Assembly: GCA_008632985.1 (NCBI GenBank)
Contig: QPGO01000215.1
Coordinates: 62,001-119,165 of the forward strand
DNA length: 57,165 bases
Origin: Psammoneis japonica
Taxonomy: Eukaryota
Direction: 5' to 3'
The notes under the pieces were generated by a model. It saw only the letters and a list, made by a program, of their open reading frames with translations, had not been told where the DNA came from and did not search any database. Positions within the stretch are counted from its first letter, which is position 1; each line of letters starts with the position of its first letter. Positions 1-57,165 of this stretch are shown piece after piece. The position numbers were made by a program, and so were the translations under genes.

Positions 1-1371
1 CACTGGGTGGGGATGGCCTTTGTCTTTTACCTTCTGTTGCTTGCAAAGGTGGGTTGCGAGGTCTGCGCATCCTGCTTCAGCGAAGAAGACGCGGAGGAAC
101 CTTCACTTCCCTTGGGTTGCCGCATCCCAAAATTCAGAATGGACAGAATCTACATCCCTCAAGAATGCGATCTGGAGGATGATCACCAGGCAGCAGTTGA
201 TCTAGACGACAGAGAAGACGCGGCAGCCAACAAATGCAACACTGACCATTCTGTGGAAAACAACGACAATGATTCAGACAACGAAGGAGAGGGCAAGGGC
301 AAGAGAGCCAACAAAAAGAGAATCCCAATTAGATGCAGCATTCACCAGCATGCAAAGCTGCTCGAAGACATGCTTGCATTCCATGCATGGTGCAAGCTGG
401 GCAACCCTCCTTCAGACAGAAACGACCTTCAAAAGATTGCAAAGAAAATTCGTTTGCTTGTTGCTCGCACAGTCCATTTCTCCCTCTTCTGCCGGCATGC
501 CATGAGTTTCGATGCTGGTCTTGGCAAATCATTGTTGAAGGACTTTTTCAAATTGCCAGCCGCGGCGGATCAACAGCGGAGCTTTGATGTCTTCTTGGGT
601 CAGGTGGCATCTCACATGGAAGACCAAATGATGGTTCACCGAGCCATCTCCGCCAATCCATGGATTGCAAACAAATCTGCTTGCAAAATGCTTGCGGTGG
701 GCGATGCGGCCAATCACCATCTGGGTGGTTCCTCGCACGTGTTGAAGTGCAATGCTTTGAACAAGGCTGTTTTGTTCCTGTGGAAGGGAAAACAAAAGCA
801 TTGTCAGGTGCACCCTGTTCTCCTCAAATTTGCAGGGAAAAAATGGAAGGAATGTGTTGGTGACAGAGAGAACCAGACAAAAAGCATTCTTTGCAAAACT
901 GAGTGTTGCAACAAAAACGGAATCGACACTTGCCGCACGCACCCAGACCATGACAGTGAAGGCGCCATTCATGACTGGGCAAATGCAAACTTTGGAACTC
1001 GGCGTGGTGATTTGTTCTTCCCTTCACGACTTCATTCTTTCTTTCAAAGAATTGGCGACGGTGAGTCATTTGCAATTGTGCATCCTTGTGCTTGCCAGGC
1101 GGACAAGCGCACCATGGTGGAACGCACGCAACACACTGACCTTGTCAGTCGATGGCAATTGGATCAAGTGAAAAACCAAGAGTTGTCCACACGCAAAAAA
1201 GCCGTGTGTGCTCCAAAGCTGCACTTGGTTCCAATCAAGGCTGTTGGTGAAAAATTGCAGGTGTGCGAGGAACAACTGGGAATCACAGAGTCACACGAGA
1301 AGACAAAGCACGTTTGGGCAGTTCAAGACAGGAGAAAAACATGGGCGGCCAAGTTTCACAATGGCGGTTGA
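1..1371 (+). pseudogene. C-terminal part of a Plavaka-like (CACTA/EnSpm-related) transposase, copy A, mutated; runs off the window's left edge
   Basis: Motifs LLEDMLAFHAWCK, FD..G..LLKDFFKLPA...QQR...FLGQVA and RTHPDHDSEGAIHDWANANF resemble the Plavaka C-terminus (HPxY..G..YDWA) with Y>H/C; recognised from memory, not searched. Confidence 0.65.
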
Positions 1372-1595
1372 TGGGCATTGTTGATGGTTGGCAACTGCAA
1401 ACAGTGCTTTGCATTTCAAAAAAGCATCAGAGCATGCCATTGTTGGAACACACGCAATTTCGGAAACAGACGACAAAACCCTCAGCATTCACCCAATTCA
1501 TGCAGTTGACAAGGCCACAAGAATTGAAGGAGTCAGCTTCATTCGTCGATGTGCGGGTCCAGAAACCACCGGGGCCACGGGTCAAGGCAGGTCTG

Positions 1596-2390
1596 TCAAT
1601 TTGGCACGCTTCTTTTGAAAGAAAAAAACTTCCATGGATTTTTCGGATCGCAACTCTCAACTTCTCTTGTGAAGTCTAAGACCTTGTCCCTTTCTGTTTC
1701 TGGAAGTGTTTCCCAAATTTCCTGTTCCGTGACTCCCAAATGCATGGCTTCCTGGTCGGATGGTTTTCCCAGCCAATCCCCCCTGTCTTGTTCTGTGATT
1801 TTGAGCAACGTTTGGCATGTCGTAATTTCGTCCAACGCCGTTTCGTGAGTCATCAATTGAGTCAGTGCGCATTCTTCTATGTGCTCCAAGTTGCGCACGA
1901 CTTGTGAGAGGGACCACAGGTTGCATGGGACTGTGATGCGACACCTTTCAAACTTGGTTTGCAACAAGGACAGCATCATCTCTTTTGGGTTTTCGTGGAA
2001 GAAGCGATTGCCGAAAGACATCATGTTCCACTCGCCGCATTGCATCCAGCAACAGTCCATGCAAATCTGGATGAATCCACTGTTCTTAAAATCAATTTCA
2101 CTGCCGAATTGTGGCTTCACACGAGACACAAAATCCTTTGCAGAAATGTTGCAATTAAGGTGGTGTGTGGCACTTCCGTCCTGCAGAGAGACGGTGCATG
2201 CCTCAACGCTGGCGTTTGTGTGCAGGTTTTCCGCAACTTGACACCTGGCCTCGTCTCTTCGATGCTGAGTGTTTGCCACGGCCTGCACCCCACGGTCGGA
2301 ACAAAGCTCATTGAAGGACAGCTGTCTGGCATTTTCAGGCCTGGTCATGCACAGCCACAGGATTTTGGCACTGCCGTCGCGACTGTGCAT
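1596..2390 (-). pseudogene. Transposon cargo ORF A, unknown function (paralog ~11316-12167)
   Basis: Reading frame open in both copies (MHSRDGSAKILWLCM...PKNPWKFFSF); no domain recognised. Confidence 0.45.
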
Positions 2391-55289: not shown

Positions 55290-56345
55290 GTGTGGCCTCC
55301 TTGCACAGGGTCAGCTGACACCCTTGTCCCCTCTGATCTGGTGCATCAAAAGTCAGACAGCGCACAGCACAGACAGAAAAAATGGCAAGGCAACAATCAA
55401 CTGCACAGGATGCGAAGCAAATGGATGACTCTGAAGGGAGTCAGACATTGCAAAGCAACAAAGGCAATTCTGCAAATGCACAAAAGTGCAGAACAGCAAC
55501 TCAGCTGAGGCTGCCCATTGTCTGATGGGCATGGCAGGTGAGCAGCATCAACCAAGGGCCTTGGCGAGGTCATTGCTCAGGTCAATGATGCCAGGAACAT
55601 GCCAAGCAACAACATGGCTGGCATCCTTCCAATCTTGCAGGGCAAACCACTGGATGTCAACATGAAGAAGAAATCTCAGTTGGGTGCTGATTGTCAACAA
55701 TCTTGATGTGTGGCCATTGCCCGTTCACAGTCTGACCTTTTGTGCAGGGTCAGCTGACACAAGTCTTTCCATTGAGACCTGCATGGCTCACCACATGGTT
55801 CTTGTTCCTGGGCTTTGAATTGGAGAATGCAAAATCCACAGCTGAGCCTTGATGCCATCATTGGGCAGCAACACAGTTGGGGCCAGCTGGGTTCTTGGTC
55901 TGCTTTGCACAAACACAATTGGAGCAAGTGTCCAAGGGGGAGAATTCCATCATGGGCAAATCCAGGAATGCTGTTGATGTGTTGGCAAGCTTTGCACAAG
56001 TGATGGTTGCGCAAGTGGACAAGATGTTGGAACCACAAGAGGCGCTCAGCATCAGCCTCCTTCAGGGCCTGCATTGGAGCCTTTTTGTCAAGGCAAGGAA
56101 CATCTTAGAGGCGCTCAGCATCAGCCTCCTTCAGGGCCTGCATTGGAGCCTTTTTGTCAAGGCAAGATTCAAAAAGAACATCTTGACAGCAGCACGTAGA
56201 ATCTTCATTTCATCCTTGAGCACTTGACTCTGATTTTCCTTGTGGGTGTTGATGACAAATGCAATGACTGCATCGCACTCCTCTGCAAAAGTGGGGTCAT
56301 CATTTTTTGGGTTTGCAGTGAACTCATTGAGCAAAATGATGACAT
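55290..56345 (-). mobile_element. Scrambled/nested Ty1/Copia (CoDi-type) remnant: pre-integrase/integrase fragment, RNase H C-terminus, PPT and two LTR starts
   Basis: Minus strand: AERLLWFQHLVH..., QG.AVDFAFS...GLNGKT, and HPTE..HVDIQWFALQDWK...HVPGII..NDLAKALG; PPT-like AGAGGGGACAAGGG followed by TGTCAGCTGACCCTG at 55320, with the same LTR start at 55759; 60-bp duplication at 56038-56097 / 56107-56166. Confidence 0.75.
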
Positions 56346-57000
56346 TGTGCTTGTTCAAGACAGGGCTTGAGATGCTTGCTCTTTTTCTCCCATTCATGGT
56401 TTTGCTGCAACTTCTTCTGGTGTTTTGGACAGGTGTGACTTCACGTCCATGTCAGGGGGATTCAAACATCCGCTGCCATGTCTGTCCTTTCACTCCAAAA
56501 TCTTGTGCAGAGAAGATCTCCATGATTGCCGTCCTTGGACTTGTTGGAGTTGTTGTTGCCTGGGGAACCATTGGCGGTGCTTGGGCTTCCCAAAATGTGA
56601 CCAGCGGGGTTGACAAGATGTTTGTCGCACACACAGGAAGGTTTGCAAGCCTTGCCAATCAGGTTGCCCAGGTTGTCATGTGCTTCATCATCATGTTGTG
56701 AGATGACCAGTGCTCTGGGAGATCCATTGAAGTGTTGCCACATTGCAAGAAGAGCCTGTCACGGAACTCTTGGCATGAGAGCTCTGTGCCATTCAGCGTT
56801 GAAGGGTGCGCTGACAGCCATGCTCCAGTCTTGGTGCTGCGCTTTGCAGCTCTGGCCTGGAGGTTGGGCAGTGTCCTGAGGATCATTTTGAGAGTCTCCT
56901 TGTGCACTTTGACTTTTTGTTTGGCTGCCCTGCTTCTTGTTTCACTTTGTGCGTGGTGTCCTTGGGGACTGCAGAGGAGAACTGAGAGCAGTGGCAGAGT
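56346..57000 (-). mobile_element. 3' fragment of an RLE-bearing non-LTR retrotransposon (NeSL/Utopia/HERO-like)
   Basis: TGAWLSAHPSTLNGTELSCQEFRDRLFLQ(C)G, HDEAHDNLGNL, HGDLL..FWSERTDMAADV, and KSHLSKTPEEV...EKKSKHLKPCLEQ match the RHN...PD-(D/E)xK endonuclease region with Y>H/C and R>H/C. Confidence 0.75.
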
Positions 57001-57165
57001 GAGTCAATCACATGCAAGCACGTGAGAGCAGCACTTGCTTCACAGCTGTGAGCTGCAGATTCTGCTGGACAAGGGATGGACAGTCCTGAGAATTAGATTG
57101 GGAGGGCAGATGGGGGCAGTCTTGGGGTCTTTGTCAGCCAAGGTCTTGCCAACTGGTGCTGGCAG

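Follow-up and report, generated by a model that had tools for sequence, protein, structure and literature searches.

Near-complete loss of TpA from blocks of diatom nuclear DNA, and the A:T to G:C process that may lie behind it

What could strip a single dinucleotide almost completely from long blocks of a genome, while the genes that lie between those blocks keep it? The question is raised by one 57,165-nt stretch of nuclear DNA from the diatom Psammoneis japonica (contig QPGO01000215.1, positions 62,001 to 119,165; hereafter the window), which is the scope of everything that follows, and in which about 40 kb, divided over four blocks, holds 161 TpA steps where about 2590 would be expected (observed/expected ratio, o/e, 0.04-0.08). 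This TpA depletion is a real observation, and I will argue, at a probability of roughly 0.8, that it records a TpA-specific A:T to G:C process that works on DNA, on both strands and after the insertion of the elements that it hits, that depends on the neighbouring bases and that is limited to domains. An earlier note on this DNA, made from the letters alone, had proposed a hypermutation of this kind restricted to repeats. That the window is diatom nuclear DNA follows from an open reading frame (ORF) for prolyl-tRNA synthetase (ProRS; 21657-22814, minus strand), whose product shares 75-84% identity with diatom proteins, among them those of Thalassiosira, Cyclotella, Seminavis and Fragilariopsis.

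Where TpA is missing and where it is kept

The window divides as follows, with TpA given as observed versus expected counts.

1..21350: TpA-depleted domain 1, with two copies of a 5.3-kb repeat, copies of a miniature inverted-repeat transposable element (MITE), a Copia fragment and 44-bp satellites (109 versus 1351, o/e 0.081; CpG o/e 0.62)
21400..23800, minus strand: ProRS gene island with normal TpA (88 versus 163, o/e 0.54; CpG 0.99); Pfam families ProRS-C_1, HGTP_anticodon, tRNA-synt_2b and WHEP-TRS
23800..24890: TA-free single-copy patch immediately upstream of the ProRS gene (3 versus 62, o/e 0.048)
24900..25200: TA-rich 300-bp repeated insert, about 20 copies, beside an assembly gap (N at 24883)
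25250..29950: TpA-depleted domain 2, with the first and most of the second of two tandem NAD:arginine ADP-ribosyltransferase-like (ART) copies (16 versus 311, o/e 0.052)
30500..43000: gene island 2, with GRIP-domain, MORN and RING genes (Pfam) and their spacers, normal TpA (529 versus 856, o/e 0.62; CpG 0.98)
44000..57165: TpA-depleted domain 3, with the strongest CpG depletion (o/e 0.34) and no credible Pfam family (33 versus 867, o/e 0.038)

Over the whole window the o/e values are 0.22 for TpA, 1.48 for TpG, 1.55 for CpA and 0.65 for CpG, and the 841 TpA are very unevenly spread. The contrast that the earlier note drew between nearly TpA-free domains and normal gene islands therefore stands (o/e 0.04-0.08 against 0.54-0.62), although there are four such blocks and not three, the addition being the 1.1-kb TA-free patch next to the ProRS gene. 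TG and CA are enriched to 1.56-1.81 in the depleted domains versus 1.07-1.37 in the islands, and since AA, TT and AT are not depleted there and GC content is barely up, this is not a general loss of AT. Measured against the gene islands, per 1000 strand-symmetrised trinucleotides, TA is down by 37.7 and CG by 23.5, and TG and CA together are up by 71.4, so that losses and gains are roughly equal. CpG decay co-occurs as a second process (CpG o/e 0.15-0.6 in the depleted domains). Furthermore, the edges are abrupt: domain 1 ends about 250 bp past the ProRS stop codon, with no TA in the 100 bp at 21300-21399 and 5-6 per 100 bp from 21400 onward. The earlier note had also asked whether single-copy intergenic DNA is equally poor in TpA, and the intergenic spacers of gene island 2 retain it at o/e 0.7-1.0.

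These letters recur in a public sequencing run, X1, which contains 89% of the sampled words of 17000-21000. Its independent contigs show no difference from the window over 17624-18120 and 18091-18614, at a word depth of about 55 where single-copy genes have about 58-60; this exact match rules out an assembler or polishing error and the base-calling of noisy reads.

Direction, timing and context of the loss

The direction of the change can be read from a mobile element in domain 1.

17601..19250, plus strand: 5'-truncated Copia (Ty1/copia-type) pol fragment, reverse transcriptase (RT) and RNase H, with frameshifts and TGA stops (phmmer, tblastn, Pfam)
18137..18148, plus strand: RT active-site motif CMDD (TGC ATG GAC GAT), Y(V/M)DD in relatives

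Its identification as a Ty1/copia reverse transcriptase element is made by phmmer (2150 relatives at E<=0.001 among 1.84 billion proteins, the best at E=7e-68) and tblastn (residues of about 830-1356 of 1300-aa polyproteins, the RT-RNase H part, map to it), despite a Pfam RVT_2 score under the cut-off (E=9.4e-5; 22.6 bits against 31.6). When the fragment is compared column by column with these proteins, 539 window codons have at least 20 aligned relatives and 310 have a majority residue, which is unchanged in 196 of the 310; yet none of the 16 conserved Tyr columns keeps its Tyr, the window having Cys in nine, His in three, Phe in two and Arg and Ser in one each (three of these columns, at 18125, 18135 and 18137, lie in the overlap of two reading frames, which may make one or two of them redundant). 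The first 186 residues lack Tyr altogether, versus a median of 3.4% in 150 relatives. Other replacements, V>A (5), I>T (2), I>M (1) and L>P (2), fit the loss of GTA, ATA and CTA codons, and R>C (4), R>H (4), R>Q (1) and R>stop (1) are CpG decay in the same element. The first column of the CMDD motif is Tyr in 92% of 26 aligned relatives, and SACLNA and ALCELKSSGA stand in the window where seven relatives have AYLNA-like and ALYGLKSSGA-like motifs. Judged by these conserved residues, the direction of change is TA to TG or CA, as the earlier note had concluded from CMDD, ACLNA and ALCEL; its further point, that both products occur in one element, is borne out by the Cys (TG) and His (CA) codons of the single Copia frame.

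Nor does native Cys or His at these positions, which the earlier note named as an objection, account for the pattern: the relatives carry Tyr, and all 80 of the best-matching metagenomic Copia loci have a TpA o/e of 0.26-0.99 (median about 0.73), so that the family is natively TA-normal. No TA-erased locus was found among these 80, the lowest value, 0.26, belonging to a 1-kb contig. Among 150 representative Copia RT relatives, however, three proteins (P0160, P0164 and P0239) have Tyr at only 1 of 267, 0 of 380 and 1 of 160 residues, with Cys or His at the conserved Tyr columns, and therefore the same erasure exists in other public assemblies, possibly of the same species.

Some further observations concern the Copia fragment and its surroundings. 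At 17793-17795 the window has CGT (Arg) where 84% of relatives have Tyr, a replacement that needs TA to CA or TG plus a further A>G at CpA (T>C at TpG), and which hints at a weak action at CpA too, creating CpG. The fragment is flanked by a 75-nt inverted repeat (16735-16809 and 19802-19876, 77% complementary), and one X1 contig links 16720 to 19836 on opposite strands. Just past it, in TA-free DNA, lie two tandem arrays of an approximately 44-bp unit (19415-19771 and 20098-20321, 63-86% alike).

The timing of the loss is recorded by a pair of long repeats in the same domain.

762..6052, plus strand: copy A of the 5.3-kb repeat family, no recognised protein domain, 89-94% identical to copy B
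10539..16248, plus strand: copy B, 89-94% identical to copy A, with a MITE inserted at 14100-14498

The family has about 30-40 genomic copies (summed depth about 1800-2300 versus about 60 for single-copy DNA) and stays unclassified because its 643-aa ORF (2338-4266, minus strand) has no relatives in the protein database and no Pfam family. Copies A and B differ at 364 of 5247 aligned sites, and 250 of the 292 transitions fall in pyrimidine-purine (Y-R) dinucleotide columns, leaving 42 in 2787 other sites; together with the normal AA, TT and AT, this upholds the earlier claim of specificity for TpA over a general A>G drift. The Y-R columns comprise 172 CG/CG, 66 CG/TG, 53 CG/CA, 57 CA/TG, 7 TA/TA and 17 with TA against another step. 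A CA/TG double difference marks an ancestral Y-R step that turned TG in one copy and CA in the other, and the 57 observed compare with about 10 predicted from the CpG counts alone (Poisson P=5e-24); the excess of about 47 means that some 94 or more TpA were present when the copies separated and were later converted independently and almost fully. This agrees with the earlier note in placing the process on chromosomal DNA, and after the copies had parted. Per copy, conversion amounts to about 0.26 for CpG versus more than 0.9 for most TpA, and non-Y-R sites show 1.5% pairwise transitions. The near-complete conversion of at least about 94 TpA while other sites gained 1.5% suggests, as a footprint only, at least a 100-fold excess over background, and TpA was lost roughly ten times faster than the presumably methylated CpG of the same DNA decayed. 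A runs test for strand clustering of TG and CA products between the copies was not significant (25 versus 29.1+-3.7 expected, p=0.16), which fits many sparse hits better than processive sweeps.

Two copies of one MITE extend this record to sequences of different age.

8873..9272, plus strand: older copy, more fully TA-erased (8 TA versus 30 expected over 8860-9290)
14100..14498, plus strand: younger MITE-like insertion in copy B (about 400 bp, inverted ends, 14 TA), with an empty site elsewhere

The empty site is seen in other contigs that join 14097 to 14499, and a depth of about 62,000 implies about 1000 genomic copies of the element. Between the two copies seven sites are TA in the younger and CA in the older, one is the reverse, and eight are CA/TG double differences, and so as part of the reading put at about 0.8 as a whole I take conversion to accumulate with sequence age, site by site and on both strands. 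Similarly, the insert at 24900-25200 (depth about 1270, hence about 20 copies) carries 13, 12 and 7 TA in its successive 100-bp segments and yet sits inside TA-free DNA; the single N at 24883 has 99% identical direct copies on its two flanks (24695-24882 and 25241-25427); most likely the assembly, or two haplotypes, were joined here at a young insertion. Conversely, 23800-24729 is TA-free and single-copy at >=90% identity (one X1 contig of depth 60 spans 20253-24729), as is 25246-26712 (depth 53.8).

The footprint thus looks to follow blocks and age, not copy number, and the restriction to repeats that the earlier note proposed is not shown, with single-copy stretches TA-free and a MITE of about 1000 copies and an insert of about 20 copies only partly hit or unhit. 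As to the elements affected, the Copia fragment, the MITE-like element and the 5.3-kb family are among them, and the DNA-transposon and non-long-terminal-repeat labels of the earlier note found no confirmation in Pfam. In the 57 kb seen, mobile elements lie in the depleted blocks and the gene islands keep normal TpA; about 13 kb, namely domain 3, and several single-copy stretches have no assigned origin. Beside these elements, a very high-copy sequence at 16655-16892 (X1 depth about 67,000) is the sole location in the window of the contigs of run X3 (0.16 Mb in all, 40-154 nt long, from the same sample), which might be small RNA against the MITE family.

The loss also has a sequence context. 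Relative to the gene islands, 18% of TAA, 8% of TAG, 7% of TAC and 2% of TAT remain. The 140 surviving TpA in the depleted blocks are enriched before AA (3.4x) and GA (2.35x) and depleted before TC, GG, CT, GT and TT, and 118 of them are flanked by a purine pair on one or both sides, versus 270 of 620 in the gene islands. That Cys outnumbers His at former Tyr codons (TAY) agrees with a 3' pyrimidine being preferred, though the numbers are small.

The tandem ART genes stand at the margin of domain 2.

28846..29664, plus strand: ART copy 1, truncated and free of Tyr (Pfam ADPrib_exo_Tox, E=7.9e-5)
29657..30493, plus strand: ART copy 2, an open frame straddling the domain edge (Pfam ART, E=2.4e-11)

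They are about 94-95% identical, and both lie mostly in the depleted block, TA per 100 bp climbing only from about 30000 to 30500. Copy 1 has DHTGGGH where copy 2 has HYTGGGY. The earlier note had read a change of VYRG to VHRG here; VHRG is indeed present, but in both copies, and the comparison rests with the only two homologues found in 5.8 billion proteins, both distant and both VYRG. Contigs of other ART copies show 11 listed differences from copy 2, of which two have CA in the window and TA in the other copy and one is a CA/TG pair. A copy about 95% identical in contigs of run X2 suggests an expressed paralogue elsewhere. Run X2 (spliced contigs, apparently RNA) also covers the ProRS gene with a spliced contig; within 14001-34000 it leaves the depleted domains uncovered, and no RNA run is listed for the depleted stretch, which carries no information on expression there.

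Elsewhere, a Pfam search of the 61 ORFs of at least 150 aa placed families only in the two gene islands and the two tandem ART-like ORFs. Shorter stop-free stretches of the depleted domains (150 + 137 of them, 60-119 aa) yielded no credible family (four weak matches, E 0.002-0.01, all under the cut-off), and a six-frame read-through of 43900-46899 in domain 3 gave none. Long ORFs with almost no Tyr, much Cys and His and no Pfam family occur at 2338-4266 (minus), 4917-6407 (minus), 9165-10637 (plus) and 45303-46454 (plus); such frames, up to 643 aa, exist in TA-free DNA because the stops TAA and TAG are missing. A 466-aa ORF (42301-43698, minus strand) with a leucine-rich-repeat-like C-terminus and no Pfam match sits in a transition zone where TpA declines gradually (o/e about 0.3) toward domain 3, and may be a place where the process is leaking into a gene. 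Domain 3 also contains a perfect 60-nt direct repeat (56038-56097 and 56107-56166, spacing 69 nt).

A proposed process at TpA and its rivals

The sequence of events that I favour would run as follows. A process acting on chromosomal DNA would convert A:T to G:C at TpA, leaving TpG or CpA according to the strand hit, and would have worked on blocks made up of old mobile elements and further non-genic DNA until TpA was nearly gone, sparing the adjacent gene islands at edges sharper than about 100-200 bp. It would have done so at a speed at least two orders of magnitude above that of background transitions and with a preference set by the 3' neighbour, TAT being erased most and TAA least. Enzymatic deamination of adenine, giving hypoxanthine that pairs as G, could produce these changes, and the simplest enzyme would be a DNA adenine deaminase of TadA/ADAT ancestry, a link that serves as a lead: the natural tRNA target of TadA/ADAT, A34, is always preceded by U33. 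Direction of the activity to silent or foreign chromatin, in the service of genome defence, may be supposed in addition. A dedicated deaminase is a tentative proposal, with a chance somewhat short of even, and is held less firmly than the process itself.

Several findings weigh against this account. The absence of strand-coordinated clustering between copies A and B means that nothing points to a processive single-strand deaminase. Repetition alone does not set the target, since single-copy stretches are TA-free and young high-copy elements keep their TA, and a TA-free patch directly precedes an expressed housekeeping gene (ProRS), a place where silent chromatin fits uneasily. The context of bacterial TadA is UACG, unlike the window, in which TA before CG survives 1.7x above average. 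Furthermore, the assembly may itself derive from run X1, so that the agreement of X1 with the window excludes assembler error and not a library-level artefact. Finally, mutation accumulation in the diatom Phaeodactylum gave CG, CC and TG as mutagenic contexts and, in the part of the report available, no TpA effect (PMC6604790), and the process may therefore be lineage-specific or episodic.

The main live rival, which the data of the window do not cleanly separate from a targeted process, supposes that a lesion or misincorporation at TpA is widespread and is repaired efficiently only in gene-rich chromatin, or that a repair step, such as the pol-eta-like one put forward in the earlier note, is itself error-prone, with neither a targeted deaminase nor defence. 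I consider it unlikely, but it deserves attention, for it would explain why the edges follow domains rather than element borders, why single-copy DNA is affected and why the products show no strand clustering; and where single-copy DNA differs between the window and X1 contigs, four of the 23 differences are exchanges of TpA with TpG or CpA, all in the gene islands (nine others are CpG with TpG or CpA, and ten are of other kinds). However, such a deficit of repair is hard to reconcile with the spacers of gene island 2, whose TpA o/e is 0.7-1.0, and with the case of Bigelowiella natans, where hypermutation limited to two regions, and to 11 of 15 mutation-accumulation lines, suggests a regulated activity (bioRxiv 10.64898/2026.01.13.699255).

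A second rival places the change in RNA: transposon transcripts would undergo ADAR-like A-to-I hyperediting before reverse transcription and insertion. ADAR does prefer a 5' U neighbour according to the Discussion of the same preprint (bioRxiv 10.64898/2026.01.13.699255), and independent editing of each new copy could yield differences between copies. Nevertheless I regard this as very improbable. One RNA gives only TA to TG on its own strand, and the Copia frame has both products (nine Cys and three His), so this is not editing of an RNA intermediate; moreover the depletion runs continuously over a MITE, single-copy DNA and the upstream region of a gene to halt at gene edges, erasure is near-total, and the most depleted triplet is TAT and not TAG.

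An artefact of sequencing, base modification or assembly, in which the real DNA would have TA or a modified base, has just as slight a chance. Local assembly errors do occur, as the N at 24883 with its 99% duplicated flanks attests, and X1 and the assembly may share their data. But contigs built independently from accurate reads reproduce the window exactly at the depth of single-copy DNA, the gene islands borne by these molecules and contigs show no such loss, a clean TG or CA stands at every site, and the frameshifts and CpG-decay changes of the same elements are the ordinary marks of real, old decay.

Least credible of all is a TA-poor composition that is native or selected (by avoidance of nuclease sites or stop codons), or 5-methylcytosine (5mC) deamination alone, since although CpG is depleted too and TG and CA are enriched, conserved Tyr codons have been replaced, the relatives are TpA-normal, CA/TG doubles exceed the CpG-only expectation more than five-fold and CpG decay is unable to remove TpA. 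The earlier note was right in setting aside 5mC decay alone, RNA-intermediate editing and repeat-induced point mutation (RIP).

Whatever the enzyme, the footprint has practical consequences. The false long ORFs of TA-free DNA pollute gene sets, because gene callers would report them as proteins, and the young TA-bearing copies inside TA-free DNA are ready reporters for catching the process in action. A natural, context-defined DNA adenine deaminase would, if true, be of interest to base editing.

Relation to known systems

The closest system is that of Bigelowiella natans, and the earlier note, which knew of no description of such a process, is overtaken by a preprint that reports TpA-only A:T to G:C hypermutation in this species (bioRxiv 10.64898/2026.01.13.699255). 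There, 231 of 302 new substitutions in mutation-accumulation lines fell in two integrated viral regions, the rest of the genome being normal; all of the 231 were A>G or T>C at TpA except one substitution in the region of a nucleocytoplasmic large DNA virus (NCLDV), at a rate of about 6e-7 per site per generation and a de novo rate 100-1000x background (bioRxiv 10.64898/2026.01.13.699255). That genome also has TpA-depleted, CpA- and TpG-rich clusters in which RT and DDE domains are over-represented, and an ADAT2-like deaminase is the candidate that the authors (Mettrop et al.) propose (bioRxiv 10.64898/2026.01.13.699255).

The two cases share A:T to G:C change at TpA, TpG and CpA products, an action that looks local and the possibility of a single-copy target. 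They differ in host, a rhizarian alga there and a diatom, thus a stramenopile, here; in target, integrated viruses (NCLDV and virophage) there and a Copia fragment, a MITE, the 5.3-kb family and unassigned DNA here; in degree, the viral region being mildly depleted (rho 0.45) as against an o/e of 0.04-0.08; and in the kind of record, de novo events in lines there and a historical footprint alone here. The ranking by 3' neighbour and the contrast in speed with CpG decay are observations on this window. By analogy, I take the process in the window to be the same kind as that in the mutation-accumulation lines, which makes this a second and far more saturated case in another lineage, so that the process is not one strain's curiosity, and adds transposons to integrated viruses as targets. 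Full-text searching of the literature on diatoms and TpA, hypermutation, RIP or mutation accumulation turned up no diatom report. Whether diatoms have a chromatin-directed DNA adenine-deamination pathway homologous to Bigelowiella's, removing TpA from silenced mobile and foreign DNA faster than 5mC decays, an ancient defence of stramenopiles, alveolates and Rhizaria (SAR) with the order TAT > TAC ~ TAG > TAA, is more speculative, and I think it possible but rather doubtful; it would be a possibly ancient defence in an ecologically weighty group. To my knowledge, no natural DNA-level A-to-G hypermutation of mobile DNA has an identified enzyme or pathway.

RIP, in ascomycete fungi, changes C:G to T:A mostly at CpA, creates TpA, needs duplication and acts before meiosis. 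The window resembles it in that dinucleotide-specific transitions on both strands saturate mobile DNA, wreck frames and spare genes, with leakage at the edges; unlike RIP, TpA is destroyed here and CpA and TpG are created (o/e 1.56-1.81), and single-copy DNA is hit while young high-copy elements are spared. Fungal RIP was accordingly rejected as a candidate, for its opposite dinucleotide shift and for want of a duplication trigger (23800-24729 and 25246-26712 being single-copy). ADAR hyperediting, which in animals acts on repeat double-stranded RNA and leaves edited retroelement copies, shares A>G, the 5' U/T preference and clustering in repeats, but it works on RNA, on one strand per RNA and in retro-copies, whereas here both strands, non-retro DNA and spacers are affected and another 3' neighbour is preferred. 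Methylated-CpG decay yields the same TG and CA products in the same domains, from another starting dinucleotide, about ten-fold more slowly here and leaving the loss of TpA unexplained. APOBEC3 is likewise a deamination hypermutation against mobile or foreign nucleic acid, though its C>U change on single-stranded cDNA, with a G>A strand bias, has the wrong base and context for the pattern of the window. If the diatom defence pathway raised above is real, then, it would stand beside fungal RIP and animal APOBEC as their A-to-G counterpart.

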